Positions 18,954 to 59,594 are shown, numbered from the stretch's first letter. The stretch is 64,000 nt of DNA from Pseudomonadota bacterium (GCA_021323865.1 JAJPKF010000025.1:128355-192354); one strand, 5' to 3'. Notes: generated by a model not told the origin, from the letters alone. Made by a program: numbers and translations.

Positions 18954-20960
18954 CTACGGCGCCTCCACGGACGCCGTGACCTCGAAGATGCCCGCTCCGA
19001 GATCCACCTGCCAGCACAGGTTCCGGATGCGCAGCGTCTGGGTCACGCCCCCATCCGCCACCGCGATCACGTCGAGCGGCTGGTGCGCCGGATTGAGGGG
19101 TAGACGCACCTCACCCTCGACCGCCGAGCGCTGCGCCCACCGCAGCTCCAGCCCGGAGCGGATTGCGCACTGACCGCTGCTCGTCAGCAGACGGTCGACG
19201 ACGTGTCGGTGCACGACCGCTCCCTCGCTCTGCACGGCATCCGCATCGAGCGCCTCCGCGAACGACGGACCGCCACCGCTGCTCCCCGAGCCCACCACCC
19301 GCACCGAGTTGGGCCGCTTCCGTGAGGCCACCCGGCGTTCGATGGGCGGCACGCCGGCCCCGTACGTGAAGGACACCGGATCGCCCGCCTGCGGCTCCAT
19401 CAGCGTCAGGTTCTCCTGCTCGTCCAGGAACCAGAGGAAGCCATACAGATCGCCGAGCCGGCGCAGATGCTCCTCCCAGGCGGCGCCGCCTCGAATGGCG
19501 AAGCTGTCCACCGTCTGACCGAACTGCGGCGTGGCCGGTATGGCCGGCGTCAGGGGAAGACCCGCGCCGACGGCCACCTCGGCGGCCAGAAACCCCACCG
19601 TGGCGCCCAGGTAGTGGCGCTCCACAGGAACCGTGCGCTGCAGCAGCCGCAGCCGGTTGGATACCCGCAGCACCACGACCGAAACAGGCTTCCCGTGGCC
19701 GACGTCGCCCGCCACCACCTCCATCGCGTCGACGTAAAGCGTATGCGTCGGCACCGGCGACGCGCCGTAGCCGAGCGAGAGCTGCAGTATCGCCCCCACG
19801 CGCAGGGCGGAGACCGGCGGCTCCCGCGGTGTGTTCTGGCCGGTCTCGTTGGCGAGTGTGACCACGCCGGCCGTCACTCCGCTCGCCGGCTCATGCAGCG
19901 TCACAGCGAGCACCGAATCGGAGAGATCGAGCGAGGGCACGCCCGTCCCCGCCGCAGCGGTCGAGAGCACTACCCGACCGGCGTCGACCAGCAGCCATCC
20001 GCCCCTCCCGGCCGGACCGGCCGCCACGGACGCGCCGTTGACGAACGGCCCGGCGACAATCTGCTCCAACGCCCAATGCACGAAGTCCGGCGACGTCCAC
20101 AGCTCGCAGCGGTTCCGGGCCGTCCCCGTGTCCGAGCCCGAATCGTAGAGGACGGCCGCCATCCGGTAGCGTCCGCCGGCGATGGTGACCGAGGGGTAGG
20201 GGATCGAATGGCCGGTGAGCGGATCGTCGAGGGGATGAATGGCCGTCATGGTCCCGAAGGCGCCGGCCGCGTAGGTCAGCGTGGCCAGACAGAGCGCGCC
20301 GCCCGGCCGCGTCACGGCCCCGGCGGCCAGATGAAAGGCGCCCGCCGAGGCCACGCACCCCAGCCCGGCGATCTGCATGTACGGCCCGCCCGAGACCCCC
20401 GTCAGCGCCCAAAGGCCGCCCGAGAGACGGTAGTACTGCACCAGCTGGGCGCCGTCGTTGCCGGCAGCGCTGTCGATGGCGGCGAAGAGGTCGTTGGAGC
20501 CGGCCGATGCCAGCCCCCAGCAGCGGTCCGTGGTGGCGGCGACCACCGCTTCGGCGGACCAGCCGGTCCCATCCACGGAGGTCTGACAGCACAGATGGTT
20601 GTCGGAACCCCGCTGGTAGAAGAGGAAGATGGTGCCGCCCATCTGCGCCAAAGCGACACCGGCCTGGCCGGCCGCGCCCGCCGTTCGCAGACCGTAGGCG
20701 CTCCACTGGGCGGCGCTGGCCAGGTCGGCAACCACCTGTGAGTACACCTGCGCGTCGGCCCCCTGCCCCGGCTGGTTCACGTAGGCGCGTAGGTAGCTGC
20801 CCGAATCGAGCCGGAGGAGCGCCGAACGGCCCGCGTTTGCCGAAGAGATGGCGGCGGGCGATGGCCGGTCGAAGGCATCGGTGCACGTGAGCTGTAGGGC
20901 GGGCGCCTGGATCGGCGAGGCCAGGGCGTCGGAGATGGCCGGCGGCACGGCACGGACCAT
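18954..20960 (-). CDS. phage-like structural protein (sialidase/BNR-like N-terminal part plus tail/baseplate-like C-terminal part; function unverified)
   Basis: 668-aa uninterrupted ORF, SD GGAGTGAGGTG; N-terminal propeller-like pattern (TSVDGTGWS, LWTSPDFVHW); C-terminal 300 aa resembles phage tail-associated proteins by eye only. Confidence 0.65.
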   Translation of the reverse strand: MVRAVPPAISDALASPIQAPALQLTCTDAFDRPSPAAISSANAGRSALLRLDSGSYLRAYVNQPGQGADAQVYSQVVADLASAAQWSAYGLRTAGAAGQAGVALAQMGGTIFLFYQRGSDNHLCCQTSVDGTGWSAEAVVAATTDRCWGLASAGSNDLFAAIDSAAGNDGAQLVQYYRLSGGLWALTGVSGGPYMQIAGLGCVASAGAFHLAAGAVTRPGGALCLATLTYAAGAFGTMTAIHPLDDPLTGHSIPYPSVTIAGGRYRMAAVLYDSGSDTGTARNRCELWTSPDFVHWALEQIVAGPFVNGASVAAGPAGRGGWLLVDAGRVVLSTAAAGTGVPSLDLSDSVLAVTLHEPASGVTAGVVTLANETGQNTPREPPVSALRVGAILQLSLGYGASPVPTHTLYVDAMEVVAGDVGHGKPVSVVVLRVSNRLRLLQRTVPVERHYLGATVGFLAAEVAVGAGLPLTPAIPATPQFGQTVDSFAIRGGAAWEEHLRRLGDLYGFLWFLDEQENLTLMEPQAGDPVSFTYGAGVPPIERRVASRKRPNSVRVVGSGSSGGGPSFAEALDADAVQSEGAVVHRHVVDRLLTSSGQCAIRSGLELRWAQRSAVEGEVRLPLNPAHQPLDVIAVADGGVTQTLRIRNLCWQVDLGAGIFEVTASVEAP

Positions 20961-21023
20961 GAATCACCTCACTCCAAGCGGCCGCCCATTTCGGCTACCG
21001 GATCGAGACAGCGGCGGATGCCC

Positions 21024-22115
21024 CTAGAGCCGGTCCCATCGCTCGGGCTTGTCGCCCCAGGAGCCGACCGCGGCCACACCCGAGTTCTCTTCGTTCTTGA
21101 CCAGGGCGATTCGTTCGTTGAACCGCGTCTCGAGGTCCCGGCCGGTGGCCGCCCAAGCCGCCGGCACCTTGGTGTCGTCCACCTGGTCCCGAAACTGACC
21201 GTCGACATAGTGGAAGTTGTCGGCCGTGGGTACCAGATAGGCCCAGATGGCAAACATCGCCGCGCCCAGGCAGAGGACGTCCCAGTGGCGCTCGGGCATG
21301 GTGGTGCCGTTGGCGTCCAGCTCGTGCTTGGCGGCGTACCGCAGCCCGATCCAGCCGTAGTTGGGGTCCTGGCCGCCGGCATCGCCCGCGTTGGGCAGCT
21401 TTGAGTCGGATATCTGCAGCTCGAAGAGAGGAATGCCCTGGGTGGTGTTGGCGATGGGTGGCGCGGCGGCCGCGGCGATGGCGGCATCCGCAGCGCCGTC
21501 CACAAAGATGGTGGTGAGGTTGTCGCCCACCGACCCGGCGAGTGTCGGCTGTGTTCCGCCCGCGGCCGTTCGATAGATGCGCCGGTCCACGACGCCGTAT
21601 GGGCCGAGCGGCAGACCACCCAGCAGGGCGCGCTGACCGGCAGTCGCCGTCCCCGAGGCGAGGGGCGTGGGCATCGTCTCCCCGCCGCCCGGGACCAGGT
21701 GGGTGATCTGCCAGGAGTAGGCGCCCGAGGAGAGCGCCCCGCCGGCTCCCAGGGATATGGTCGCCGGCGGGGCGGAAGCAGGAGGAGGAACCAGCGCCGA
21801 GAGGCGCTCCTCGAAGGGCTGGCTCCAGTGGGGAAAGAGGCCATAGGGGTACTCGACGGCATCCGCGAACCAGGCGTCCGGCGGGAGGGCATACAGCCGC
21901 GAGAACGGCCAGGTGGGGATGAGCGTCTGTTTCAGCAGCGGCGCGGCGGACGTATAGACGTCGGTGGCGCGATCCAGGGCCCGAGCCAGATCCATGTCCG
22001 TCCAGCGCGGCTGGTCCCCGGCCCGCTGACCGGCATCGAACAGGTCAAGGCGCAGCCGGGCGATGAAATCGCTGAGCGTCGGCGTGAGGCCGGTGACGAC
22101 CACGATGGGGCTCAT
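21024..22115 (-). CDS. phage-like structural protein (function unverified)
   Basis: 363 aa, SD GGGAAGGA; directly upstream of the 668-aa ORF; N-terminal LSDFIARLRLDLFD...RWTDMDLARALDRA pattern resembles phage virion proteins. Confidence 0.6.
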   Translation of the reverse strand: MSPIVVVTGLTPTLSDFIARLRLDLFDAGQRAGDQPRWTDMDLARALDRATDVYTSAAPLLKQTLIPTWPFSRLYALPPDAWFADAVEYPYGLFPHWSQPFEERLSALVPPPASAPPATISLGAGGALSSGAYSWQITHLVPGGGETMPTPLASGTATAGQRALLGGLPLGPYGVVDRRIYRTAAGGTQPTLAGSVGDNLTTIFVDGAADAAIAAAAAPPIANTTQGIPLFELQISDSKLPNAGDAGGQDPNYGWIGLRYAAKHELDANGTTMPERHWDVLCLGAAMFAIWAYLVPTADNFHYVDGQFRDQVDDTKVPAAWAATGRDLETRFNERIALVKNEENSGVAAVGSWGDKPERWDRL

Positions 22116-22437
22116 TCCGGTCCTTCCCTGTCTCTGAACCGGTTGAGCATAGAGGGGAATCGGCGGCCGTCAAGGGGAAGAGCCGGGGTCGCCGGCAGGT
22201 CTGCTCTGATGATGCCGCGCCGGTGACGGCAGGGCACCACCGCGAGCGCCCGCTGGTCGGGACTCTGGCTCCGGCTCAGGCGTTGGTTCCTTCAATTGGT
22301 GCGGGCTCCGCCTCCGGGAGCGCACTGCCCACTGAGCGGTCGCCCGGGGAAAGTGGCATTTCGCGGCCCACAGGTGTAGGCTGGGGCACTTCGGGCCATC
22401 CCACCGCACCGTTCGATTTCCCTTGACGGAGAACCTG

Positions 22438-25425
22438 ATGAACCGCCTGGGCCTCCTTGCCGCCATGACCGGCCTGCTCCTCATTGCGCCCGTCGCAAAT
22501 GCCGCCGGACCTGTGCCATCCACAACGGCACTTGCCGTGCGGCATGCCCGGCCCGCGTCATTGCCCCGGCCGGCGCTCTATGCTCCACGCGCGTCGCGTG
22601 CCCGGTTGCTCGGTCTCCAGGCCGCCGGCCCGGCCGGGCCGCTGGGCGCCAACGGCGCGAAGACTCTCGGAGCCGGCGTGTCCGCACGTCCCTCCTTCCC
22701 CACTCCCGTGGGCATGTACCAACCCGCCCGCGGCGGCCGGTTCATGACCGGCGCGCCTCGTGCCTCGCTTCCTCCATGGGCAAACACGGCCTCCGTGATT
22801 CATCGCGATGGGGGCGTGTCGCCATCGCTGCCCGACGCCCCGGGCTGGACGGCGAGCAGTGCCCGCCGCCCCACCCTTGCTCCCGATCCTCAATCGACCG
22901 TCGGCGCCATCAGCTGTGTCTCGGCGACCAACTGCTGGGCCACGGCCAACTATTCCCTCACCGACGCCCACTATCGTGCCGCGCTCTTTCATCTGAAAAA
23001 CGGTCACTGGTCCTCCCGCGTCGCCCCGGCCCCCTCGGGTGTCACGCTGGGCGCGGGACTCAACCTCAGCTCGCTCTCCTGCCTGCCGTCCGGACGCTGC
23101 GTGGCCGCCGGCGAGTACAGCGCCAAGACCAAGACCAAGGCAGGCTTCAAGACGGAGCCCCTGATCGAGTCCGAGCAGCACGGAAAGTGGACGGCCATGA
23201 CCGCACTGCTCCCGGGGAACGCCGATCAAGATCCGCTCGCCATCCTGCGCTCGGTATCGTGCGCGACCATTACCTCCTGCGTGGCCACCGGCACCTACAA
23301 CAGCAAGAACCGGGTGCTCCCGCTCGTGGATGAAGCGAGCGCCTCGGGCTGGCACGCGCAGGTCCAGTCCCTGCCCAAAAATGCCGCGTCTCCCGCGTAC
23401 GTGACGACGGTGCAGGTGGTCTGCCCTTCCGCCGGTAACTGCACCATCGCCGGCGGCTACGATGCCCCCGGCGGCGCTCGCGGTCTGATCCTTCAGGAGA
23501 CCAGGGGCGCCTGGAAGACCATTCCGGTCAGCACTCCGAACGCCGGGCTCACGCTGCAGGCCCTCGACTGTCCCGCCGCCGGCGCCTGCGTGGCCGTTGG
23601 GCTGCGGTTCGCCAGCCGCGAAACGCCACTGGCCGCCGTCGAGAACAAGGGGACCTGGACGGCCGCCCAGCTTCCCCTGCCTGCCGGCGCCAAGAGCCCA
23701 TCCACCTACGCCAACATGTCGGGCATCGCCTGCTCGGCGATCCAGCACTGCGTCGCCGTCGGCGGCTTCGCGCGAGGGCAGAAGATGGAGCGACCGCTGG
23801 CCATCGTCGAGTCCCCCGCCGGTTGGAAAGCCCCGGCTGTACGGAGCCCAGACGGCAAGGTGGTCACCGGAGGCGTCCTCTTCGGTGTGGCTTGTTCCGG
23901 CCACTGCGTCGCGGTAGGCACCTACCAGCGGGGCATCACCCCGCGCCCGCTTGTCCTGACCGGCAGCGGGCTTTCCGCGACGTCCCCGTCACCACCCGGT
24001 GCGAACGGTCTGGCCGTCTTGCAGACGGTGACCTGTCCCGACGGCAGCCTGTGCCTCGCCGGGGGCAATTACCTTGATGCCCACCAGAACACGCAGCCCT
24101 GGTTCACGCTCGGCTCGGGCGCCGCCTGGATGTCGGCTGCTCCCGGGCTCCCCTCGGGCGCCGGCCGGCCCATAGACTTCTGGCTGGCCCGCGTGTCCTG
24201 TGCCGCGGGCGGAAGCTGTGAAGCGCTGGGCACCGACGCCGAGCGCAGCCTGTTCGCCGAGGCGCTCAGCCACTCGGGGTCGTCGCCGCCGGCGCGAATC
24301 CCCTCACCTGCGGACGCCGGCTGGAACACCCGGTTTTTCATCACCGGCCTCACCTGTCCCGCGGGCGGTGTCTGCACCGGCACGGCCGCCTACATCAACC
24401 GCTCGGGCGACCTGAAGTCCGAGATCGTCGGCCTGCACAAGGGGAAGTGGACCGTCGCGCCCGCGCCGCTGCCCGGCGGCCCCAGCGCCAAGGCCTCGGT
24501 CGACCTCTCGTCCGTGTCCTGCCGGTCCACCGCATACTGTGAGGTCGCCGGGGCCTACATCGACGCCCATGGCGGCCAGCACGGCCTTCTCATCACCGGC
24601 TCCGGCCACAGCTGGAAATCCTTCGACGCGCCGCTGCCATCAGACGCGGTTGCCAAGGCCCAGCCCTTCCTCGATTCCGTGAGCTGCTCGACGGGCGGCT
24701 GCGTCGCCGCCGGCGACTACCGCGCCGGCGGTAACCACATCGCCCCGGTTCTGGTGACCGGTGGGCCATCCGGCTGGAAGGCCATCAATCTGCCGCTGCT
24801 GCGGTTTCATGGTCAGAAGCCCGACCAGGCCGCGCTCCTGGACGTCAGCTGCGGCGTGGCCGGCTGTGCGGCGGCTGGCATCATGGTCGACCAGGCATCC
24901 GACGAGGCCGGGTTTGAGGCGGTCCATGGAGGATCGGGCTGGTTCTCGGTGCCCACTCCCGTTCCCAGTGGCGCCATCGGATCGGACCTCGCGGCGGTCT
25001 CCTGCCGTTCCAAGCCGTCGTGCGTGGCTGTCGGTGCCTACCTGAACAGCCAGTCCAGCGAGTATCCGCTGGTGGTCAGCGGATCGGGGTCGACATGGAA
25101 ATTCCAACACCTGTCCTGGCCCGGCCAGGCGCGCCCCGAGAGCAACCTCTCGCTGATCGACTGCGCGTCCCCCGGCTCCTGCGTCGCGGCCGGCGGCTAT
25201 CTGGGGCCCGGCTATGGGGAAGAGGTGCTCACCGTCTTCCAGAGTGGCTCGAAGTGGAAGCCGCGACGCGGGCCGCTGCCCTCGGACGCGTTCCAGTCGC
25301 CAGCCGGCGGCCACGAGGCGGCCGTCTTCGGTCTCTCCTGCGCGCCGCCGACGTTCTGTGTGGAGGCAGGCGAGTACATCGACCACAATCTGATCGGCCA
25401 GGGGCTGATCGACCGACGGTCGTGA
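22438..25425 (+). CDS. secreted ~995-aa Cys-pair repeat protein (paralogue 1)
   Basis: Signal peptide MNRLGLLAAMTGLLLIAPVANA; ~16 repeats, each ending in C-x(3-6)-C-[VA]-A-x-G-x-[YF] (VSCATITSCVATGTY, LDCPAAGACVAVG, VSCRSKPSCVAVGAY...). Confidence 0.85.
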   Translation: MNRLGLLAAMTGLLLIAPVANAAGPVPSTTALAVRHARPASLPRPALYAPRASRARLLGLQAAGPAGPLGANGAKTLGAGVSARPSFPTPVGMYQPARGGRFMTGAPRASLPPWANTASVIHRDGGVSPSLPDAPGWTASSARRPTLAPDPQSTVGAISCVSATNCWATANYSLTDAHYRAALFHLKNGHWSSRVAPAPSGVTLGAGLNLSSLSCLPSGRCVAAGEYSAKTKTKAGFKTEPLIESEQHGKWTAMTALLPGNADQDPLAILRSVSCATITSCVATGTYNSKNRVLPLVDEASASGWHAQVQSLPKNAASPAYVTTVQVVCPSAGNCTIAGGYDAPGGARGLILQETRGAWKTIPVSTPNAGLTLQALDCPAAGACVAVGLRFASRETPLAAVENKGTWTAAQLPLPAGAKSPSTYANMSGIACSAIQHCVAVGGFARGQKMERPLAIVESPAGWKAPAVRSPDGKVVTGGVLFGVACSGHCVAVGTYQRGITPRPLVLTGSGLSATSPSPPGANGLAVLQTVTCPDGSLCLAGGNYLDAHQNTQPWFTLGSGAAWMSAAPGLPSGAGRPIDFWLARVSCAAGGSCEALGTDAERSLFAEALSHSGSSPPARIPSPADAGWNTRFFITGLTCPAGGVCTGTAAYINRSGDLKSEIVGLHKGKWTVAPAPLPGGPSAKASVDLSSVSCRSTAYCEVAGAYIDAHGGQHGLLITGSGHSWKSFDAPLPSDAVAKAQPFLDSVSCSTGGCVAAGDYRAGGNHIAPVLVTGGPSGWKAINLPLLRFHGQKPDQAALLDVSCGVAGCAAAGIMVDQASDEAGFEAVHGGSGWFSVPTPVPSGAIGSDLAAVSCRSKPSCVAVGAYLNSQSSEYPLVVSGSGSTWKFQHLSWPGQARPESNLSLIDCASPGSCVAAGGYLGPGYGEEVLTVFQSGSKWKPRRGPLPSDAFQSPAGGHEAAVFGLSCAPPTFCVEAGEYIDHNLIGQGLIDRRS

Positions 25426-25759
25426 GCCGCGTCCGATTCATTTCCTCTAGCCGGCTTTGCCTGGACCTGCAGCAGAAGACGGAGACCGGCTGAACTCCCT
25501 CGCTCTGAGGGCTCCTCCGTTCCCATCCAGTCCGCATCCATAGCCGCCCGGCAGCAACCAGACGCGTGCCTCGACGAGTTCATGGCAAGACTCCTACCGC
25601 GACTAGGGCTTGCCATGGGGTTCCGGTCTCCGTCCCCTGCCTACGCTCGAGAGATAGACGGCCGCCAAAACGATAGCTTCCAACCCGCCCCGCCCCTTTC
25701 CGGCTCTCTCCAAGCCCTATGCCCGGGTCATGTCTCTCGCGTCAAGCCAATCCCGCCGC

Positions 25760-26485
25760 CTACGAGCGCGGCTTGATCTTGACCGGGATCAGGTAGCTGG
25801 GCAGCTCGCATCCGGGGCGGCAGCTCGGGTTCATGGTGATGGCCGTCGTCCCCACCCTCACGCCCACCCACTCCCAGAAGGCGCCCGCGGCACACTCCAC
25901 CTCGGGGCAGGCGCGCGGCGGCGTTCGACCTCTCGCCATCAGCGCCAGATAAGCAGACGGCGCCGAGGGCACATACAGCGGCTTGCGTGTGCCCTGCTCC
26001 CACACGTACACGGCGTCTCCCAGCCGCAGGGTCACCGGCTTGTGCGCCATGCCGTCGACGTGGGTCACGGCCGGCGGGGCCGGCCGGCCATGCAGCAGCG
26101 TGAGCTGCGGTATGGGCGGCTTTCGGGCCGGTGGACAGCCGAGACCCGGCCCGCTCAGCACCACGCGATGGCCGTGCAGGTCCCGGGCGACCATGGTCTC
26201 GCCGTTGCAGAGATCGATGTGCTTGACGCCCACCGAGAAACGGCCCCGGGGCGTGGTCCACAGCTCGAGGCCCACAACCACGGGCTTTTGTCGCAGCGCG
26301 AAGACCACCCGCTGCTTGGCCGGCCAGCCGGTGCCCCGTATCGCCAGGGAGTAGCCGGAAACGGAGATCAGTTTGAGGGCCGGCCCGCCGGCCGCCGCGG
26401 GACGCGCGAGCGCGGGAGCGGCCAGGACCGAGAACATCAGCGGCGCCGCGACGATGGTGGTCAACAGCAGGCGGCGAACGATCAT
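25760..26485 (-). CDS. secreted hypothetical protein (241 aa)
   Basis: ATG 26485 after GGAGGTGG; signal peptide MIVRRLLLTTIVAAPLMFSVLAAPALA; 8 Cys; lies between the two giant paralogues. Confidence 0.7.
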   Translation of the reverse strand: MIVRRLLLTTIVAAPLMFSVLAAPALARPAAAGGPALKLISVSGYSLAIRGTGWPAKQRVVFALRQKPVVVGLELWTTPRGRFSVGVKHIDLCNGETMVARDLHGHRVVLSGPGLGCPPARKPPIPQLTLLHGRPAPPAVTHVDGMAHKPVTLRLGDAVYVWEQGTRKPLYVPSAPSAYLALMARGRTPPRACPEVECAAGAFWEWVGVRVGTTAITMNPSCRPGCELPSYLIPVKIKPRS

Positions 26486-26640
26486 GACACTTCCACCTCC
26501 GGGAACGTGCAGATGCCGGTTCGGTACCGTGGCGGATCGCGGAGGCGTCCGCCCTGCCTCAGGGTACGCCCGAAATGAACGTCGGGGATTGTTTACATGT
26601 GAGCCGGCGCAGAATTGGTTTCCCCGTGTCTGGACCATCA

Positions 26641-26760
26641 GGTTCCTCCGTTCCTTGGTTCCCCCGTGCCCTAGCCGGCGCGGTCCTCTGTTCCTTGCTT
26701 TCGCCGGCTCCCTGGTCAGGGCGTTCCTGGGTTCCTTGGCCCCAGCTCGACCCAGGCTGA
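26641..26760. repeat. three tandem ~40-bp units with GGTTCCT-N-GTTCCTTG core in a divergent promoter region
   Basis: Units start at 26641, 26681, 26721 (ggttcctccgttccttgg / ggtcctctgttccttgc / cgttcctgggttccttgg); related copies at 27026-27039 and 22283-22294. Confidence 0.5.
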
Positions 26761-27071
26761 CGCCGGATCGGCTTCTACGACTTCATCGCCGCCGCCGCAC
26801 GGCCTTTGCAGCCGGCCCCAACGGCGAAGCCGGCGCGTCGCGCGTTGTCCCTTCGGGGCCTACTGACAAACCAGGAGTACGCCCGGCGTCCGGTCTACTG
26901 TCAAGGTGCTCGAATGCCCATCCAGACGCGGCCTCCGGACACTTGGATTTTCCGCCTGAATGATGTAGCCTGGGGAGCTTTCGGCATAGTTCACGGAGCG
27001 ACGTACCGCCGGACGGCAGCAAGCCGTTCCTGGTTCTCCCGAGGCCAACACGTAGGAGAGGAAAGAGAAGC

Positions 27072-29972: not shown

Positions 29973-29981
29973 GCGCAACGG

Positions 29982-30014
29982 ACGGGCAGGGGACATTACG
30001 TCCTCTGCCCGTCT
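29982..30014 (+). terminator. GC-rich hairpin downstream of paralogue 2
   Basis: GACGGGCAGGGGAC-attac-GTCCTCTGCCCGTC, 14-bp stem (one G-U), 10 nt after the stop; weak T tail. Confidence 0.55.
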
Positions 30015-30032
30015 GTTCGCCTGCGGCAGTTT

Positions 30033-30141
30033 GGCGGGGGCAGGGGGGATTCGAACCCCCTTGAACTCATTCGTTGGACTGGATGAAATGACTCTTGTCT
30101 CTGGGTTTCCCCAGCGGAGGAGCCGCTGACCGTTGCCCCCA
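30033..30141 (-). other. tRNA-like element (T-arm + acceptor + GCCA 3' end) that does not fold as a canonical tRNA
   Basis: Minus strand ends ...GGGGG-TTCGAAT-CCCCC-C-TGCCCCC-G-CCA; complementary GGGGGCA lies 109 nt upstream; interior has 6-bp hairpin CAGCGG/CCGCTG and GGGAAACCC but no D-arm or anticodon arm. Confidence 0.3.
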
Positions 30142-31580: not shown

Positions 31581-31596
31581 TCCTTCTCATGCCTGA

Positions 31597-32476: not shown

Positions 32477-32489
32477 GGAGGGGGTCGTC

Positions 32490-49250: not shown

Positions 49251-49667
49251 GGCATCTCCCTTCGGCGCCGCTCCTGGCCGTCGCGCCGTTCGCTGGATCA
49301 CAGCATGCTAGGGAGCAGCCGCGGCTCGGTCAAGGGGCCGGCAGAAGGGCTGCATTTCCGGCCAAGCGAGCGGTGCTGCGCCGGTCTGAAAAAGGCCCGA
49401 CGTAGTCGAAGCGCGTGTCGCCGGAAAAGAAGGCCGAACGGGCCCCCGCCTCTGACCACTCATCGAAAGGGGAGGCTCCTGATCTGGGAATGTGGCCCAG
49501 GCTCGGTACGCCACTGACAGCGGACAGTCCACAAGGCGTACGCCGAAGCAGACACCGTGTACTATGAAGCCAGCATAAGCTGCCGTCGTCAGCTTTTGAC
49601 GCAGGCTCGGCCGTCGGTGGTGGGATAGCTGTTCGTCGAGATACAGAGTTTGAGGGAGGGCTGGTAC

Positions 49668-52514: not shown

Positions 52515-52545
52515 GGTGGCTGCGGCGATCAGCCGCTGATGAGAT

Positions 52546-52576
52546 GCGGCGGCCGGCCCAAGTAGCCGGCCGCCGC
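52546..52576 (+). terminator. GC-rich hairpin after BNR gene
   Basis: GCGGCGGCCGG-9 nt-CCGGCCGCCGC; no T tract; a second imperfect hairpin follows at ~52594-52630. Confidence 0.4.
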
Positions 52577-52832
52577 CACTCGCCTGCGGTACCGGCTCTC
52601 GTGGCTCTGAGCGACAGCCACCGAGAGCCGTTTCAATGTGAATCGATTGGCCGGTTAGGGTTCTCGCTCCCGGCACCCGAGGCCTTCCGTTATCAACTCC
52701 AACGGAGAGGGCGGGCGAAAGCGACACGCGTTCAGGCCCGGCCGCCCGCTCAGGCGCAGCGCTGCGTCTGCTCAGTGCGCCCGCCCCGCATGCATAATGT
52801 TCCCATCGACAACGCTCAGGAGGACAAAGGAC

Positions 52833-53918
52833 ATGCGATCAGTCATCCGCGCCCTGGCTCTCGGCTCTCTCATCGCCTGCTGCTTCGCCATCGCCGCGCC
52901 GTCCGCCGCGGGGGCGGCGCCCACCTACAGCATCAAGGCCATCATCCCTCCCGGCGGGCTCAGCTCGAACGCCGCCGACATCAACCCCGAGGGGAACGTC
53001 GCCGGTTCTGAAACGACGAGCAAGGGAAACCTCGGCTTCCTGTACTACGCCAAAACCGGCGCATACCGCGTGCTTCAGCCACCCAGCGGCGACAGCTCCG
53101 ACAATGTCAACGGGCTCAACAAGGGCAACCACATGGCCGCAACCGGGTCGAGCGACGTCTCCGTCGCCCAGCCGTTCGAGGCGCATGTGCTGAAGAACAA
53201 AGCGGCGTGGGTCCCCGTCCCCACTCCCGGCTCAACCACGCCGCCGTTCTCCACGGCGCAGGACATCAACCCCCACGACAGCCTGGCCGTGAACATCTTG
53301 CAGCCCCAGTTCCTGAACCGCGCGGCCATCGCCACGCACCGCCTCCACAAGAAGTACGTCACCCATCTGGAGAACCTGGGTTCCGGCTTCAACATCTCCC
53401 ACGCCAACGCCATCGACGAAGACGGCCGGGTGGCCGGCTGGCAGGGGACCCAAACGGACCCAACCGCGACCGTCTGGACACCCCAGGGGAAGCCCATTCT
53501 GCTCGACGGCTCGTCGGCGAACGACATCGCCGAGGGCAAGCAGGCCGGCGGAAGCGAGTCGGGCGGCACCGAGTGGGTGACCGTGGTCGGGGCCCAGGGC
53601 TCCGAGGTCGAGACACCCTGCGCGTGGCACGGCCGCTACGTCGCCGGCAAGCTGACCTTCGACCCCTGCAGCCCGCTCCCCGCGACATTCGGCAGGGCCT
53701 TGGGCATCAGCCCCGACGGCAAGCTCATCGTCGGGCAAACCCCTGCGAACGGCGCAACCCTGTGGATCGGCAGCAACGCCTACGACCTGAACTCGCTCAT
53801 ACCTTCGGGATCCGGCTGGCGCCTGATCAGCGCCGTCGCCGTCAATAGCCACGGCGATATCGTGGGCAACGGCCTCCTGAATGGCGTTTCCACCGGCTTT
53901 CTCCTGACACCCGGCTAG
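52833..53918 (+). CDS. secreted HAF-family-like extracellular repeat protein
   Basis: SD CAGGAGGA; signal peptide; repeated A-x-[DG]-I-N-x-x-G-x-[VI]-[AV]-G units (AADINPEGNVAG, ANAIDEDGRVAG, ALGISPDGKLIVG, AVAVNSHGDIVG). Confidence 0.8.
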   Translation: MRSVIRALALGSLIACCFAIAAPSAAGAAPTYSIKAIIPPGGLSSNAADINPEGNVAGSETTSKGNLGFLYYAKTGAYRVLQPPSGDSSDNVNGLNKGNHMAATGSSDVSVAQPFEAHVLKNKAAWVPVPTPGSTTPPFSTAQDINPHDSLAVNILQPQFLNRAAIATHRLHKKYVTHLENLGSGFNISHANAIDEDGRVAGWQGTQTDPTATVWTPQGKPILLDGSSANDIAEGKQAGGSESGGTEWVTVVGAQGSEVETPCAWHGRYVAGKLTFDPCSPLPATFGRALGISPDGKLIVGQTPANGATLWIGSNAYDLNSLIPSGSGWRLISAVAVNSHGDIVGNGLLNGVSTGFLLTPG

Positions 53919-53941
53919 GGCTTGGAGCCGCTCTGTCCGTC

Positions 53942-54080
53942 TGGATCACTCACAGGCACGGAATCACCCGAAGGTTGACCGAACGAGGCGAGGGGCCGGG
54001 AGCTTTCCTCCCGGCCCTTTGCGGAAACCCGAGGCGTTATCCGCGAGAAGTGTGTCTTACGCCCCAGCCACGACGTCCAG
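53942..54080 (+). repeat. ~139-bp direct repeat, copy A (contains terminator hairpin 53993-54017 + TTT)
   Basis: gggccgggag-ctttc-ctcccggccc-ttt gcggaaacccgaggcgttatccgcgagaagtgtgtcttacgcc aligns to 55621-55759. Confidence 0.7.
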
Positions 54081-54163
54081 GGGCTCTAGCCCCGGCTTCC
54101 GATGCAAATGACGCTGGAAGATAAAGATTAGATGAAGTCGGCCGCTCTAGCCGGAGGCCGCCG

Positions 54164-55459
54164 TCACCCCTGCGGCGGGACAGCAGTCCAGCGCGCGAAG
54201 ACCGACGCGGGAACGCGCTTCACGGACGCTGAGTGTCTTGTGACCACGTCCACATCCTCCATAAAGGTCACACCCTTGGACTGATCGCGCCCGACAACCA
54301 CAGCGAAGTGCTCCCCACCCGGCTCAAAGACTCCGGCGATTGGCGCCCCTGTCACGTGGACCGAACGAAGGTGACTCGTCTGGTCCAGGATTCGTACGAT
54401 GTGAGGCATAGTCGCCGGACCCGGGAGCAGTGTCGCCACGAGTCCATGGCCGGCGACAAAAGGCGGCGGCACTGACCCAACGTCCTTGGGAAGCCACGAG
54501 GCGAGGACCGCCAGGGTCCGGGCAGGGCCGCGCGGCAGGCGCCACTCGGTAAGCGCCCATCGGTTCACTTGATCGTGGTTACTGGCCCCTCTCCAACGCC
54601 AGTAAAGGACCGCGTGCCCTCCGTAGGTCCATGTGAATCCCCCGTCGCTTCGAACATCGGGCGGTCGGCCGGGCCGAATAAGGTCTCCTCGGCGACCTGG
54701 TGGATGGATGACGGTGACCGCGCCGGGACGGTCGGCCGATGCGAAGCCTACCCAGAGAGGCCCGGCAGGATTCGGGCGCTTCTGGTGGGCACCTCCCTTA
54801 AGGAGATTGATTTGCCAAAGAAGGCGATGACCATGGGTCGACCAGGCATAGTCACTGTAGAGGTATCCGGTCGCTCCGGTACCAACCGTCTTCCTAACTC
54901 TCGTCCCCAGGCTGTAGACGCGCAGAAAGCCCTGGACGCCTGGGGTCCCGACTGGGTACTCCTCAGCCACTAGGTAGGCCAGATATTTCCCGTCGGCAGA
55001 AAACATCGGGCGGAACCCCTTTTCGATCACCATGCTTCTGCCTGTACTGAGGTTCACGAGGTGAATCCGGAAGTCGGGGTCATCGTAGGCAAGCCACCGC
55101 CGATCCGAGGACACGTCTAGACAGGTGCCGGCCCCCGGCGAAAAATAGGCCCGAAGAGGCCTCCAGAGTCGGGTAACAGTACCGTTCGTGCGGTGAAGCA
55201 GGAGTTTGATGCTTACCGAACGGCCGTGGGTGTCGACCCGGCCCAAAGCCGCGGCCGTCACAAGCCGACTACTCGGCGAGTGACTCCTGAGACCCGCGCG
55301 TTCCCATGCGGCGGACCCGAGAAGCAGGCAGCATGACAGAGTCAACCACCCTAACCGCAGGCAAGCTGCTTTCCGCCCATCACAGTCGGCCCTCGGCCGG
55401 TGAACTGCTTGACCAGCGTCCGTTAGTACGGAGCTTGCCGCGGTAGGCCGAATGTCCAT
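54164..55459 (-). CDS. TolB/PD40-like beta-propeller protein with N-terminal anchor
   Basis: 431 aa; VSSDRRWLAY, FSADGKYLAYL PD40-like strands; sample line 55% GC. Confidence 0.7.
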   Translation of the reverse strand: MDIRPTAASSVLTDAGQAVHRPRADCDGRKAACLRLGWLTLSCCLLLGSAAWERAGLRSHSPSSRLVTAAALGRVDTHGRSVSIKLLLHRTNGTVTRLWRPLRAYFSPGAGTCLDVSSDRRWLAYDDPDFRIHLVNLSTGRSMVIEKGFRPMFSADGKYLAYLVAEEYPVGTPGVQGFLRVYSLGTRVRKTVGTGATGYLYSDYAWSTHGHRLLWQINLLKGGAHQKRPNPAGPLWVGFASADRPGAVTVIHPPGRRGDLIRPGRPPDVRSDGGFTWTYGGHAVLYWRWRGASNHDQVNRWALTEWRLPRGPARTLAVLASWLPKDVGSVPPPFVAGHGLVATLLPGPATMPHIVRILDQTSHLRSVHVTGAPIAGVFEPGGEHFAVVVGRDQSKGVTFMEDVDVVTRHSASVKRVPASVFARWTAVPPQG

Positions 55460-55620
55460 GGGATGATCTCCTCGCGCGATGCGTTAGGTTCACGACACAT
55501 AGGTCACAAAACTCCAGGGTGGCAATGCCCCAGGTCGGATCGAGAGACCACGCCCTTCGGTTCATTAAGTATATGCCTCCTCTAGCCGGCACCGCCGAGG
55601 TTAATCCAAACACGCCGGTG

Positions 55621-55759
55621 TGGATCAACCGCCGGCAGCTGAGCCACCGAACAATTGGACGGAACCAGACGAGGGCCGGGAGCTTTTGCTCCCGGCCCTT
55701 TGCGAAAAGCCCAGGCGCTATCCGCGAGAAGCGTGTCTTCCGCCGCAAGCACGACATCC
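55621..55759 (+). repeat. ~139-bp direct repeat, copy B (hairpin 55673-55698 + TTT)
   Basis: gggccgggag-cttttg-ctcccggccc-ttt gcgaaaagcccaggcgctatccgcgagaagcgtgtcttccgcc; same orientation as copy A. Confidence 0.7.
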
Positions 55760-55788
55760 AAAAACAATATGGCATCATAGGCGCAGGA

Positions 55789-56069
55789 TGACGGCGGACG
55801 GGCAGGGCTACGACGAGGCTGCGGACGTGACGCCGGATACCGTGCCGCCCTCCTCGGATCAGCCACAGCCCGGGAACGGCGGCGAGGCGGGCACGCCGAA
55901 CGAGCCGGGCGAGATCGCCAATCCCGCCCGCCAGGCGGAGAGCGCAACGCCGCCTGCCGGCCAGGAGCCGGAGACTGCCGAGCCCCGCAACCGGGCCGAG
56001 CGCCGGCAGCGCCGCTTCCATCAGGGCAACCGCCCCCCGTGGGATGAGACCCGTCACCGCAAACACTGA
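55789..56069 (+). CDS. small disordered acidic/Pro-rich protein with basic tail (93 aa)
   Basis: Very high GC3 in this frame; weak SD; no family recognised. Confidence 0.45.
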
Positions 56070-56360
56070 TCTCACGGCATGCCCCACCGGAACAGGCGAT
56101 ACCGAGCGCCCGGCGACTCTCGCCCACACGCGTCTCCCCAACCGGCTCGCGAACCTCGCCGGCGCCGATCCTTCCACAGCCTCGCCGCGTCGCATCTCTG
56201 CGCGTACAGGCAGGCGTCGAGGATTCGGCCGTCCGGCGCCTCGCCGACCCCTCGACCCGGTCGCGGTTGAGCATGTCCCCGGCGTCTCGCACCTGTCACC
56301 GCCACCGTCGCCGCCACAGCGTCTTGACGCTCCCATGATCCCGCTGACCTCGAACACGAC

Positions 56361-58124
56361 GTGGTGATCGCCGCGCCGCCGCGTCCCCGCGAGCTACGCG
56401 GCCGCCGGGCCGTCTGGCGCATCGCCGAGCCACTCGACCCGGCCGTGGTCCAGAACGTCCCCAGCGTCTCCCGCATGGTCGGCCATCTGCTCTTCCAGCG
56501 CGGCATCGCCGATCCCCAGGAGATGGCCACCTTTCTGAGTGGTCCGCCGCCCGAGCACGATCCCCGCCTGCTCCCGGACATCGAGGCCGCCGCCGAACGC
56601 ATTCGCCGGGCCGCCCAAGAGCGCGAGCGCGTGGCCATCTGGGGCGACTTCGACTGCGACGGCCTCACCGCCTCCGCCATCCTGCAGGAGGCCTTCCGCA
56701 TCCTGCACATCGAGCCCGTGGTGATCATCCCCACGCGTGACGACGGCCATGGCCCCTCCGGCGACCGCCTGCGCGAGCTGGCCGCTGGCGGCGTCACCCT
56801 GCTGGTCACGGCCGACTGCGGCATCGCCGACCTCGCGGCGCTCGCGGCCGGACAAGACGCCGGCCTCGATCTGATCGTCACCGACCACCACCAGCCGCAT
56901 GCCGACGGTACCCTGCCGCCCGGCCTGGTGGTAAGCCCCACCCGCCGGGACGCCGCCTATCCCTTTCAGGGCCTGTCCGGCGCCGGCGTCGCCTACAAGC
57001 TGGCCCAGGTGCTCCTGGAATCACCCGATCGCTACCTCCAGCTCCTCGACCTGGCCGCCTTCGGCACCATCGCCGACGTCGTGCCCCTGCAGGATGAGAA
57101 CCGGGCGCTGGTCATGGCCGGCCTGGAGGGCCTGCGCAGCACCCGGCGCTGCGGCCTGCGCGCGCTCTTCTCGGTCGCGGGCATCGAGCCCTCCCGGATC
57201 GACGCCGGCTCGGTGGGCTGGTATCTGGGCCCCCGCATCAACGCCGCGAACCGGATCGCCGACCCGGCCATCGCCTTCGAGCTGATCACCACCCTCGATG
57301 CCGTCCGGGCCCAGCGGCTGGCCGAGCAGCTCGACGCCCACAATGACCTGCGCCAGACGCAGGTCGCCGCCGCCGTCGAGGAGGCGGTGGAGATCATGGG
57401 CGCGCCGGCCGAGGCCACCGTCGACATCCGCGAGGGCCGCCGGCCGCCCATCGCCTGCGTCTCCGGCTCGTGGGGCCCCGGCATCTCCGGCCTGGTCGCC
57501 TCCAGCCTGGTGGAGCGCTACGGCGTGCCCGCGCTGGCCGCCTCGCCCCGCAAGGACGGCCGCATCTCCGCCAGTGGCCGCTCCATTCGGGGCGTCAACA
57601 TCCTGGAGATCCTGGAGGCAGCCTCGGCGGACCGGCCCGAGGCGTTCCTGGGCTTCGGCGGTCACTCCATGGCCTGCGGCTTCATCACCACTCGCGAGCG
57701 GCTCCCGGAGGCATTCGCCGCCGTCGAGGCCGTGGCGCGATCAAGGGTGCCCGTCGACGACCTGGGCATCACCATGTCCATCGACGCGCAGGTGCGGCTG
57801 CACCAGCTCGACCTGCGGGCGGTGGAGCAGATCGAATCGCTGGCTCCCTACGGACAGGCGTTCCCCGAGCCTCGGTTCCTCGCCTGCGGCATCTATCTGC
57901 GGGGCCGGCGCCCCTTCGGCGCCGATGGACGACACCTCAAGATGACCGCCTGCTCCGGCGACCAGCGGGTCTCCGCCATCTGCTTCAGCTGCAGCCGCGA
58001 GCTGCGCGACTTTCCCGAGGACCAGCCGCTCGACCTGGCCATCGCTCTCGTGCGGGACGAGCGCAACGGCGCCAGCCGGCCGCAAATTCGCATCGAGGAC
58101 TGGCGGCCGCACCAGGAGGACTGA
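56361..58124 (+). CDS. recJ: single-stranded-DNA-specific exonuclease RecJ
   Basis: DHH motifs IWGDFDCDGLTASAIL, VTADCGI, VTDHHQP; DHHA1 GFGGHSMACG. Confidence 0.9.
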   Translation: MVIAAPPRPRELRGRRAVWRIAEPLDPAVVQNVPSVSRMVGHLLFQRGIADPQEMATFLSGPPPEHDPRLLPDIEAAAERIRRAAQERERVAIWGDFDCDGLTASAILQEAFRILHIEPVVIIPTRDDGHGPSGDRLRELAAGGVTLLVTADCGIADLAALAAGQDAGLDLIVTDHHQPHADGTLPPGLVVSPTRRDAAYPFQGLSGAGVAYKLAQVLLESPDRYLQLLDLAAFGTIADVVPLQDENRALVMAGLEGLRSTRRCGLRALFSVAGIEPSRIDAGSVGWYLGPRINAANRIADPAIAFELITTLDAVRAQRLAEQLDAHNDLRQTQVAAAVEEAVEIMGAPAEATVDIREGRRPPIACVSGSWGPGISGLVASSLVERYGVPALAASPRKDGRISASGRSIRGVNILEILEAASADRPEAFLGFGGHSMACGFITTRERLPEAFAAVEAVARSRVPVDDLGITMSIDAQVRLHQLDLRAVEQIESLAPYGQAFPEPRFLACGIYLRGRRPFGADGRHLKMTACSGDQRVSAICFSCSRELRDFPEDQPLDLAIALVRDERNGASRPQIRIEDWRPHQED

Positions 58125-58130
58125 CCGCCG

Positions 58131-59594
58131 CTACCAGCCGCCGTCGTCGACGGTGGGCCCGGAGCGGATGATGCCGCCAAAGGCCGGTGGCCCCATGGCC
58201 CCCGCGGCCCGAACCGTGAGCGCCAGCGACATGACGAAGTCGTCATGCCCCGTGGCGGCCGGCGAGGAGAACTCCATCTCCTCCGAACCGCGCAGGCGGT
58301 AGCGAACCGAGCGCAGCTGCGCCCAGCATTCCCCGAGATCGGCATCACCCGGCGCTAGATAGAGCGATAGCCGGCCGGTCTCCACCGACGACAGCAGGCC
58401 GAAGCCCAGGTCGCTCTTGCTCTTTCCGGTGAAGACCACCGGGTCGAGCCGCGAGGGCAGCGACCGGTGAAGGAAGGAGGCCAGGCCGGCGCCCACACCG
58501 GTGGCGTCGACGCAGACGCGCGTCACCTGCCAGACGCTCTGGAGCAGCTCCATCATGCGGTGATACTGCTCCACGTGCGTCAGATCGCGCCACCGATAGT
58601 GCCGCACCACGCGGATGGCCGGCAGCCGCGAACCGGTCGCGGGATCGGACGGCCCCGTGTCGGCGATGGTTATCACCGTCTCGTCATGCTCGTTGAGTGC
58701 TCGGCCCACACGGCCCGCAGGCACCACCACCTGACCCGCGACATCCACGCCCGCCACGTATTGCCGGCCCAGCAGCGGGCCATCCAGCCGCGGGTGCCGA
58801 CCCTGCATCCGCTCCAGGAGATGGGCCGGGAAGAGGCGGCCCACGGAGGAGATCGGCTCCAGCAGGTACTGAGTCTTGACGGTCGGGTGCTCGTGGCCCA
58901 GGCGCTCGATCTCGGCCTCCACGAACGCGCGGTAGGGCGGCGAGATGGACCCCAGGATCGGCCATGGCGCCTCGAAGTTCAGGCGCCGGTTGAGGCGGCC
59001 CTCCTGCTCCCGGTTATGGCGGCGCTGCTGCTCCAGGATGTTGTCCTCGTCCCAGGCCGTTCCGTACAGCACCGTGGTGGCGCGGGTGGTGGCCGCCATG
59101 GGCCGGAACTTCCGCCAGTACACGTCCTCGTCCACATCCTGCGCCTCGTCGACGGCCAGCAGGATGGACGCGGTCGAGCCCACCACGTTGGCGCTGGGAT
59201 CGGCGGAGAGAAAGAGGATGCGGGCGTTGTCCATCTCGATGGCATGCCCATGGCGGCCCGTCCACCGGCCCTCGGAGAAGGGCGTGGCCAGCACCTCGCG
59301 CAGCCGGAGCATGGAGGTGAGGAGCTGGGGATGGAAGGTGGGCGCGGCCTTGACGATCTGGCCCCCGGACCCCGCGAAGCGATGTAGCAGGTAGGCCTCG
59401 AGCTGGGCGGCCAGCTCGTTCTTGCCCGACTGGCGGGCCATGAGGATGGTGAAGGTCCGGCCCTCGCCCCGCCGCACCGAATCCCATACCGCCTCCCCCG
59501 CCTCCAGCTGGTAGGGCCGGAGCATGCGCGGCGCGGCCAGACGCGAGAAGCCGGCCAGTGATGCCAGGGCGGGGTCGCCCTCGGGAGTGTCCAT
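58131..59594 (-). CDS. phage terminase large subunit-like protein (orphan)
   Basis: Walker A-like FTILMARQSGKN, Walker B LLAVDEAQDV, C-terminal nuclease-like VAGVDVAG...CVDATGVGAGL; no adjacent small terminase or portal. Confidence 0.85.
   Translation of the reverse strand: MDTPEGDPALASLAGFSRLAAPRMLRPYQLEAGEAVWDSVRRGEGRTFTILMARQSGKNELAAQLEAYLLHRFAGSGGQIVKAAPTFHPQLLTSMLRLREVLATPFSEGRWTGRHGHAIEMDNARILFLSADPSANVVGSTASILLAVDEAQDVDEDVYWRKFRPMAATTRATTVLYGTAWDEDNILEQQRRHNREQEGRLNRRLNFEAPWPILGSISPPYRAFVEAEIERLGHEHPTVKTQYLLEPISSVGRLFPAHLLERMQGRHPRLDGPLLGRQYVAGVDVAGQVVVPAGRVGRALNEHDETVITIADTGPSDPATGSRLPAIRVVRHYRWRDLTHVEQYHRMMELLQSVWQVTRVCVDATGVGAGLASFLHRSLPSRLDPVVFTGKSKSDLGFGLLSSVETGRLSLYLAPGDADLGECWAQLRSVRYRLRGSEEMEFSSPAATGHDDFVMSLALTVRAAGAMGPPAFGGIIRSGPTVDDGGW

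Follow-up and report, generated by a model that had tools for sequence, protein, structure and literature searches.

A 64-kb window of DNA from a soil metagenome (the whole stretch analysed, JAJPKF010000025.1:128355-192354 of GCA_021323865.1) carries genes of phage origin for DNA packaging, head, tail and lysis, which lie in four blocks on the minus strand, span 40.6 kb and are separated by genes of the cell. That the four blocks share a common origin in one element is secure from their gene order, and the element is of a short-tailed, HK97-type, phage-like lineage specific to the Chloroflexota. The set would seem to be no longer a virus. The reading that we favour, on which our confidence is evenly balanced, is that of a host-resident, selectively maintained and possibly gene transfer agent (GTA)-like gene set with its portal gene elsewhere in the genome. 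The analysis is based on sequence alone, within the 64-kb window, with reading frames chosen by third-position GC (GC3); related contig loci fetched for comparison are numbered L001-L195 and protein families carry F or G numbers. The window corresponds to bases ~8.5-72.5 kb of the 200,853-bp contig Ga0070739_10000084 of Joint Genome Institute (JGI) soil metagenome 3300005532, its G+C content is ~68%, and the proteins most closely related to those it encodes are labelled 'Chloroflexota bacterium'.

Reading along the minus strand from high to low coordinates, the first block is a solitary gene at 58131-59594 for a large terminase subunit (TerL) of 487 aa. An earlier model-generated reading of the same DNA (the sequence-only reading) had called this open reading frame (ORF) terminase-like, and it is borne out as a large terminase by matches to Pfam Terminase_6C (1e-8) and phrog_2 (1e-15) and by a family profile that matches the nuclease domains of solved TerL structures. 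The Walker A (ARQxGKNE), Walker B (DEAQD) and coupling (YGT) motifs and the three nuclease Asp motifs are invariant in a 21-member alignment, the window copy included, and both the ATPase and the RNaseH-like nuclease domain of HK97-type packaging are present. At least 388 relatives, nearly all from Chloroflexota, were found in a scan of one genome per GTDB species and a further search of IMG/VR gave 270, the closest of them 46% identical to the window TerL; the nearest TerL from an isolated phage, a Bacillus phage, is 32% identical.

The second block is a single gene at 46416-49250 (-) whose 944-aa product, already present in a protein record, joins a prohead protease, a scaffold-like linker and an HK97-type major capsid protein, a fusion that the sequence-only reading had recognised. 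It matches Phage_capsid_4 (2e-42) and phrog_4523 'major head and protease protein' (1e-58) as well as Mu-like_gpT and phrog_133. Its protease (phrog_15531, aa 45-196) is N-terminal and its HK97-type capsid domain C-terminal, with low-complexity sequence as a long linker between them; the HK97-fold capsid and the maturation protease that together mark an HK97-type head are therefore found in one ORF. Homologues of the fusion are present in 56 related loci, and the nearest capsids of isolated phages are those of Microcystis phage Mae-JY22 (33% identity) and the Fels-1-type ClpP-gpT heads (~30%).

Pfam and PHROG scans of the third and fourth blocks returned nothing apart from a C39 peptidase, and given this near-absence of direct database matches the identity of their genes was drawn from synteny, from family profiles and from one structure model. 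The fourth block had been taken to hold two large structural-looking ORFs in a set without a tail, and this is the claim that fell: profile searches for cryptic parts, as had been proposed alongside it, and a structure model turned up an adaptor-like protein and a hub, and no portal. The hub gene, at 18954-20960 (-), encodes a 668-aa protein (F16) whose family profile, built from 38 relatives, matches the Mu gp44 baseplate hub (1wru, 3e-8) over residues ~400-604 and sialidase propellers (3e-6) over residues ~118-318, with further matches to the pyocin R2 hub and a VgrG. Among the 38 family members 27 match phrog_1887 'tail protein' and nine match phrog_177 'baseplate hub', and on these profiles the protein is a tail hub with a predicted BNR/sialidase-like propeller at its N-terminus and a hub domain like that of Mu gp44 or P2 gpD at its C-terminus. 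Its neighbour at 21024-22115 (-) encodes a 363-aa protein (F1) with an inserted beta domain which models as a head-to-tail adaptor-like protein. The AlphaFold2 model, made with 20 homologues, has a predicted local distance difference test (pLDDT) score of 83.7, and the matches that recur in a Foldseek search of the PDB are adaptor or connector chains of short-tailed phages; these are weak, with TM-scores on the query of 0.20-0.36 and a best E value of 1.6e-3, and come from cyanophage A4 (9k09_d, TM-score 0.57 on the target), Pa223, KHP30, SU10, GP4, DEV and the P1 connector. Over the whole search TM-scores were at most 0.44 on the query and up to 0.64 on the target. Against predicted viral structures there were 61 matches at E<=1e-3, mostly unnamed, the named ones including 'head to tail adaptor' and 'tail connector' and also 'major tail protein', tail spike and lipase, and the family profile, in the inserted beta domain, matches the GP4 virion protein 8jov_A (1e-7). 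In L004 a homologue of this protein directly follows the C39 peptidase. No sheath or tube family was found in the Pfam and PHROG scans, and with a capsid gene present the set is set apart from tailocins and contractile injection systems.

The third block has its core at 35788-41489, the limits first proposed for it, to which conserved module genes at 42027-42628 and 45072-45356 must be added; all of its genes are on the minus strand. The 94-aa protein encoded after the capsid gene (45072-45356) is found at the same position in L003 and L108. It is followed by two further small conserved module proteins, F12 (93 aa, 42347-42628, family hidden Markov model (HMM) 3e-41) and F19 (105 aa, 42027-42344, family HMM 6e-14), homologues of which stand beside the capsid gene in L003-L005, L007-L010 and L108. 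These last two genes are not the vapBC pair that the sequence-only reading had placed among the cellular genes; of that pair the PIN gene (vapC) was confirmed, and lies at 33687-34115. The conserved virion-module protein F8 (162 aa, 41001-41489) has homologues in 11 loci and a profile without a match to solved structures, and a single-sequence structure model of it was unusable (pLDDT 40). Next to it F9 (318 aa, 40022-40978, family HMM 1e-61) has a conserved N-terminal domain and a Pro/Ala-rich tail, and occupies the same position in L003-L005, L008 and L010.

The remaining genes of this block are those for which the sequence-only reading had used the words fibre-like and holin-like, labels which draw on composition, hydrophobic segments and gene position. 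A 114-aa membrane protein with three hydrophobic segments by hydropathy (39678-40022), whose ATG overlaps the stop of the preceding gene and which has 105-aa homologues in L003 and L005, is a putative holin. A programmed frameshift of the tail-chaperone type between 40022-40978 and 39678-40982 was considered here and rejected, the second frame coding only for the last ~114 codons, which are the separate membrane protein. The 722-aa Gly/Ala/Thr-rich protein with a hydrophobic N-terminus that follows (37507-39675) has no Pfam or PHROG match and no homologue in any fetched locus; its slot is held in L005 by F3, a GDSL-lipase protein which matches phrog_15881 'tail protein' and which in most other relatives lies directly after the capsid gene, and from position and composition the 722-aa protein is a candidate fibre or receptor-binding protein. 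F4 (36878-37312, ~132-144 aa, family HMM 2e-11), a further small virion-module protein whose profile has no match to solved structures, adjoins the adaptor and F8 in the compact clusters of L100 and L105. Frame analysis and hydropathy point to two small ORFs in the region 36333-36790, one (36563-36790, 75 aa) with a coiled coil and, at its N-terminus, a transmembrane helix, and one Arg-rich with a coiled coil that ends at 36333, both of them possible lysis accessory proteins. The last gene of the block (35788-36336) encodes a 182-aa cysteine peptidase, confirmed as Peptidase_C39_2 (Pfam 3e-9) where C39-like had been suggested, which shares 55-64% identity with the homologues that hold this position in L003, L004 and L005 and is a candidate cell-wall peptidase or lysin. 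The holin-like ORF, the transmembrane and coiled-coil ORF at 36563-36790 and the peptidase would plausibly make up a lysis cassette.

More than 20 related contigs have homologues of the third- and fourth-block genes beside their capsid gene, in unchanged order. In L003-L005, which were found through the capsid protein, the homologues of eight of these genes (45072-45356, 42347-42628, 42027-42344, 41001-41489, 40022-40978, 39678-40022, 36878-37312 and the C39 peptidase) follow the capsid gene on the same strand within 6-8 kb; 19 IMG/VR contigs add the hub gene 18954-20960 and two of them (L019 and L021) also a terminase, all on one strand, and homologues of window genes stand beside the capsid fusion in L003-L005 and L008-L024. 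The order in the nearest group (L010, L004) is that of the window, namely capsid, F8, F9, fibre slot, F4, lysis, adaptor F1 and hub F16. In closer relatives the full order is portal, capsid fusion, F8, F9, fibre slot, F4, lysis, adaptor, hub and terminase, of which the window order is a rotation with the terminase first and not last, whilst compact relatives have terminase, portal, protease-scaffold-capsid fusion, adaptor, small proteins and tail hub. The canonical phage order claimed for the window therefore holds in the sense that it matches that of related elements, and does not hold as the textbook order. It is from this collinearity that the blocks are taken to derive from one element split by insertions and replacements.

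The phage-like ORFs are all uninterrupted, as had been stated of them, and all of the conserved module genes are open, at least 12 ORFs with ~3,300 codons in the eleven that have homologues. Relative synonymous codon usage of 11 phage-like genes correlates with that of 21 adjoining cell genes at r=0.975, and GC3 of the 11 genes tested is 0.76-0.92. The codon-usage outlier is a 2.4-kb low-GC patch inside the module (42935-45069, mixed strands; r=0.85 vs host, GC3 0.62-0.75), in which Pfam and PHROG identify a MazG-like gene (42935-43399, +), an HNH_2 endonuclease gene (43333-44334, +) and radC (44347-45069, -); in L147 and L148, homologues of the MazG and HNH genes precede the portal.

In a neighbour-joining tree the window TerL groups with L109, L027, L025, L001 and L029, a clade in which every TerL stands alone among cell genes (rpsT and holA in L027, recQ, metE and recJ in L109, ABC transporters elsewhere), at 54-63% identity and with no truncated copy. 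The next group (L002, L035, L030 and L032) is solitary or has the hub only, and more distant branches consist of compact clusters. The window TerL is convergent with recJ, with 6 bp between them, and a VKOR gene lies 47 bp upstream of it on the same strand; the TerL of L109 is 63% identical and lies 2.4 kb from a recJ that is 55% identical, convergent as in the window. Nei-Gojobori estimates between the window and L109 are dN 0.33 and dS 1.10 for TerL and dN 0.43 and dS 1.02 for recJ, and the resulting dN/dS of ~0.3 for TerL, from one syntenic relative, and its comparison with recJ are indicative only, since dS is near saturation.

Related loci carry a portal (F7/G23; phrog_10963, 3e-39), and the absence of one from the window, reported by the sequence-only reading, was upheld by HMMs of the three portal families F7, G23 and G1, which find nothing in a six-frame translation of the 64-kb window; HMMs of F2 and other families of the relatives likewise find nothing there. 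No small terminase was found in the window or in the 5.6 kb to its right, and those 5.6 kb hold cell genes only (a STAND NTPase, an AlkZ-like protein, YjbQ and a metallo-beta-lactamase), with neither portal nor integrase among them. No integrase, repressor or replication gene occurs among the ORFs scanned by Pfam and PHROG, which cover the large ORFs and leave many small ones unscanned, there is no tRNA in the window or in 31 related loci, and a repeat search of the window gave no att-like flanking direct repeat, all of which agrees with the earlier statement that no integrase or att duplication could be recognised. What would make a functional prophage, that is an integrase, att sites and lysogeny or replication genes in a contiguous packageable genome, is not found here in the ORFs and repeats scanned. 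A 121-aa protein encoded 1 kb upstream of the solitary TerL in L027 (6430-6795) is 59% identical to the product of the gene after the adaptor in L004 (19314-19682), and its size and position suggest a candidate small terminase; no homologue of it is detectable in the window.

Maintenance of the set by the host is argued for by its host-like codon usage, the solitary-TerL clade, the linkage of TerL and recJ, portals that stand alone in related genomes and minimal clusters without lysogeny genes. Relatives also show this scattering of the genes. Selection for joint function, a distant portal and production of particles are inferred. If the inference holds, heads would be assembled and matured from the capsid fusion and filled by the terminase, by way of a portal whose gene is elsewhere in the genome; a short tail would be made of adaptor and hub, possibly joined by the 722-aa fibre candidate, and release of the particles would fall to the holin-like proteins and C39 peptidase. 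The spread of the genes stems from three interruptions, namely the 13-kb block of cell genes before the adaptor, the low-GC patch of 2.4 kb, and 8.5 kb of cell genes where compact relatives have the portal. The choice that the sequence-only reading had framed, between a fragmented prophage and a domesticated GTA-like set, thus stands, as the blocks are collinear with related elements and several observations lean to maintenance; only the absence of a tail had to be given up.

A number of points weigh against host maintenance. With no portal or small terminase in the 64-kb window and the 5.6 kb to the right, the set by itself would be unable to package DNA or attach a tail. The synteny of TerL and recJ comes from a single relative, L109, and repeated integration beside recJ could mimic it; with dS near saturation, arguments from dN/dS and from an equal age of the two genes are weak. 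The nearest capsid relatives (60-67% identity) include L007, L009 and L012, in which the portal is kept beside the capsid gene, and the dispersal of the capsid module could thus be a recent or lineage-specific event. Furthermore, phages often match the codon usage of their hosts, the low-GC patch with its phage-linked MazG and HNH genes resembles ordinary prophage debris, and the variety of partial layouts would also be expected from decay.

These points lead to the explanation that survives best besides host maintenance, a cryptic defective prophage in decay, which has lost its portal, small terminase, integrase and replication genes, has been broken up by insertions and rearrangements, and whose ORFs are intact only through short time or incidental benefits of single genes. 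We hold it to be possible, if somewhat unlikely. The missing portal, small terminase and integrase, the lack of att sites, the patch of foreign composition with phage-linked MazG, HNH and RadC within the module and the many partial or rearranged layouts in related loci (L119 is inverted, L017 is without a portal, L030 has hub and TerL only) all fit decay. They have to be set against at least 12 conserved module ORFs that are open with catalytic motifs intact, fully host-like codon usage, a solitary TerL that is common to a whole clade and never truncated, a TerL that is better conserved than its neighbour recJ, and the repeated sparing of the same genes, which is unlike random loss. Cryptic remnants combine gene loss with pseudogenes and foreign composition, whereas here there is loss, no ORF is disrupted and only the MazG, HNH and RadC genes are foreign.

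A further alternative is separate exaptation, in which the genes no longer cooperate, TerL having taken a cellular or defence role, the capsid forming portal-less shells, and the hub, fibre and peptidase belonging to a complex that is secreted or acts on the cell wall. Many genomes have a solitary TerL, some of them with no capsid module seen within 10 kb, and that of the window is part of a tight same-strand array with DUF929 and VKOR genes; HK97-fold proteins can form shells without a portal, as in HK97 gp5 and the encapsulins. However, an adaptor and hub have no known role in the absence of a portal-bearing head, yet both are intact and conserved, every class of element apart from portal and small terminase has been kept on one strand and in ancestral order, and the capsid retains a maturation protease and scaffold like a DNA-packaging prohead, and we consider this explanation improbable. 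Nor does the set resemble an encapsulin, an HK97 shell with cargo and no packaging or tail genes, as a protease-scaffold fusion, terminase, adaptor and hub are all present.

An inducible and intact prophage, with large cargo ('moron') islands between its modules, would account for phage-like order on one strand, intact ORFs and lysis genes, but it is very unlikely, as a portal is missing from the window, the ORFs scanned include no integrase, repressor or replication gene, there is no att repeat and no tRNA, recJ and a riboswitch-controlled crcB intervene, hemC and proS flank the left end, and the span is probably beyond the head capacity of this gene set. An assembly chimera of phage and host fragments, which the origin of the sequence in a metagenome contig might suggest and which had been named as a possible refutation, is hardly credible: composition is uniform across the junctions, and both the NUDIX-DUF929-VKOR-TerL-recJ-...-BNR-capsid neighbourhood and the repeat protein-adaptor-hub-hemC neighbourhood are seen in five contigs, independent Logan assemblies of run SRR5579884 among them, which excludes it.

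In the way it would work, the set taken as host-maintained most resembles a GTA, in that chromosomal structural and lysis genes are found without genes for autonomous replication or lysogeny, with the portal absent from the window. As in RcGTA of Rhodobacter capsulatus, head, tail and lysis genes of phage origin lie in the chromosome without integrase, replication or lysogeny genes, have a host-like composition and occupy more than one locus, and they may, like it, be inherited with the host. RcGTA consists of a main cluster and separate loci for fibre, head spike and lysis. No specific sequence relationship between the two is apparent, however, and the capsid here is of the Phage_capsid_4/Mu gpT type, fused to a protease, which to our knowledge is not the RcGTA capsid family. 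The window further differs in lacking a portal and in a short tail of adaptor and hub with no tape measure; we know of no GTA in which the core genes for terminase, portal and capsid are separated. Searches of the literature turned up no GTA and no comparable element in Chloroflexota, Chloroflexi or Dehalococcoidia.

Cryptic prophages such as the remnants in E. coli K-12 are also incomplete phage sets in a chromosome, lacking what an autonomous cycle needs. Such remnants typically form one contiguous stretch of distinct composition, vary between strains and have pseudogenes, whereas the set in the window is scattered, fully open and host-like in its codons, and has a solitary TerL common to a clade. 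Phages with a protease-capsid fusion (the Fels-1/Stx-phage-type ClpP-gpT heads and Mae-JY22) have the same head-gene architecture, with 30-33% identity by tblastn and matches to phrog_4523 and phrog_133, but they have complete genomes with adjoining terminase and portal, and their identity is low and their hosts unrelated. The 21024-22115 protein remotely resembles in fold the podovirus adaptors (T7 gp11 and those of cyanophage A4, Pa223, KHP30, SU10 and GP4), as by profile the C-terminal half of the 18954-20960 protein is remotely similar to the Mu gp44/P2 gpD hub; unlike either kind of tail, an adaptor together with a propeller-bearing gp44-like hub, and no detected tube, sheath or tape measure, would make an undescribed tail type. 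Capsid-forming phage-inducible chromosomal islands and other phage satellites likewise have small head and packaging sets and no complete phage genome. Satellites, however, form contiguous islands, carry an integrase, primase or replicase and att sites, and rely on the tails of a helper; here no integrase or primase was found (some small ORFs being unscanned) and a tail hub is present.

Related loci extend the comparison to the phylum. Compact clusters of TerL, portal, capsid, F1, F4, F8 and F16 occur in L100, L105, L033, L038 and L155. In L155 five genes lie within 8.3 kb (4574-12825), encoding a terminase, portal, capsid fusion, 207-aa adaptor and 687-aa hub. A [NiFe]-hydrogenase operon flanks them at one end; at the other end are genes for an oligopeptide ABC ATPase, an MttB-family methyltransferase and a protein of 411 aa. 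L154 and L038 are ~99% identical to L155, and the L033 cluster (9803-18168) occupies the same site, with flanking genes 89-96% and cluster genes 79-92% identical; the hosts of these four are related Anaerolineae. No recombinase, integrase or replication gene was found among the flanking ORFs checked against solved structures at the L155, L038 and L033 site. A 24-kb IMG/VR contig (L020, L195) runs from portal to hub and on to a small Zn-finger protein gene, terminase and opposite-strand Tat-signal genes and is without a terminal repeat. By their surroundings these compact relatives look chromosomal rather than viral. Divergent from and upstream of the compact cluster in L105, a complete chromosome, are two genes (7003-8570, -) that by eye look like a sigma-factor-like gene and a LexA/CI-type S24 repressor-like gene.

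In Dehalococcoidales TerL is found at a site common to many species, and it is usually separated from the portal and capsid genes by two opposite-strand genes for proteins of ~600 aa; this pair has no solved relative and has therefore not been labelled cellular. The order of three upstream genes, a small protein gene and the terminase is shared by L048, L053, L063, L070, L073, L078, L081, L091, L097, L098 and others, and the ~600-aa pair is followed by genes for a DNA-binding protein, a portal (phrog_64) and a major head protein (phrog_212). This has the look of an old phage-derived locus that was interrupted and has a different head module. In metagenome contigs, a scan with portal profiles recovered both canonical TerL-portal-capsid clusters and solitary portals, the latter alone or with only F2 or F4 within 9-10 kb of non-phage flanks (L111-L114, L116-L118 and L144) that include genes for acyl-CoA synthetases and for GH44, TIG, malectin and PIN proteins. 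Immediately upstream of the solitary portal in L112 is a gene for a retropepsin-like aspartyl protease (8950-9861; Asp_protease_2, 5e-12). In JGI sample 3300055049 the capsid module (L003) and a solitary TerL (L025) are on different long contigs, which is likely a second case of a dispersed set. Two candidates from these loci were set aside: the 620-aa gene that precedes the portal in L012 does not encode a terminase, and a 437-aa gene beside TerL in L109 is unrelated to the window ORF 54164-55459 or to any module family.

Taken together, these loci may belong to a phylum-wide, undescribed family of resident phage-derived particle genes in the Chloroflexota, independent of the alphaproteobacterial GTAs, a proposal that we make tentatively and regard as doubtful. 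It would take three forms: a five-gene cluster fixed at one chromosomal site in some Anaerolineae, a conserved-site cluster of Dehalococcoidales interrupted between terminase and portal, and that of the soil clade, in which terminase, portal and the capsid, tail and lysis genes would be intact at separate loci. This last form would be the first bacterial case of core virion genes of a domesticated virus scattered like the polydnavirus genes of wasps. Domesticated phage particles (GTAs and tailocins) are so far described from few bacterial groups and with their core genes clustered. Were such separate, intact loci indeed kept in a widespread phylum of soil and subsurface, this would suggest a new and independently evolved particle system, with a possible route of gene exchange in organisms that are hard to culture; virion genes could be dispersed and yet maintained. 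Decaying debris would be an ordinary finding. Viral-detection pipelines would label such loci inconsistently, some relatives being in IMG/VR as 'viruses' and the window not, and a lone terminase gene in a Chloroflexota genome should not be taken as the sign of a prophage.

The genes between the blocks are cellular, as the sequence-only reading had it of recJ, riboswitch-crcB, NUDIX, VOC, a cation transporter and repeat proteins; they include recJ, VKOR, DUF929, NUDIX, BNR/sortilin, crcB, DUF190, PIN, VOC and cation-efflux genes and the two for repeat proteins, and hemC and proS directly flank the fourth block on its left. DUF929, VKOR (59642-61198, -) and TerL are on a single strand with gaps of 0 and 47 bp, and from this tight array TerL may be co-transcribed with the DUF929-VKOR pair, a gene pair for disulfide-bond formation. 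A STAND NTPase gene (AAA_16/TPR; 61846-64000, +, running past the window; 1099 aa in L193) is 2.2 kb from the solitary TerL. Homologues of ~30% identity occur in other loci, at 5-8 kb from the solitary portals of L112, L113 and L116 and in the neighbourhood of the L005 capsid module, a nearness which could be chance in genomes rich in such regulators. An AAA_25 ATPase gene adjoins the solitary TerL in two genomes (L001, 8562-9851; L029, 7972-9129) and its homologues precede the portal in the viral-type loci L019 and L148, from which it follows that some 'solitary' TerLs retain one element-linked neighbour.

The 8.5-kb stretch between TerL and capsid gene (49650-58124), which is the place of the portal in compact relatives, contains, by Pfam and by gene calls in L193, a BNR/sortilin protein gene, unknowns of 373 and 431 aa and recJ. 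The 431-aa ORF (54164-55459) has the size and position of a portal and was rejected as one, having no portal, Pfam or PHROG signal; its composition is atypical (GC3 0.68) and its sequence looks propeller-like. A direct repeat of 103 nt (53977-54079 and 55658-55760, 81% identical) brackets a 1.6-kb segment of lower GC with this ORF, which may be a small insertion or duplication.

The 13-kb interruption between lysis genes and adaptor (22423-35658), annotated from Pfam, Rfam and the repeat families D1-D6, holds genes for two repeat proteins of ~1000 aa, cation-efflux, VOC, DUF190 and PIN proteins, several unknowns and a fluoride riboswitch with crcB. The riboswitch (32422-32481, +; Rfam RF01734, 48.5 bits) is directly upstream of crcB (32490-32864), with DUF190 downstream (33004-33402). 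The two repeat proteins (22423-25425 and 27072-29972, +) are Cys-rich paralogues with no Pfam match, made of many copies of a Cys-containing unit whose DNA repeats encode C..C.A.G.Y and GKWT, and they may represent an undescribed family of secreted repeat proteins.

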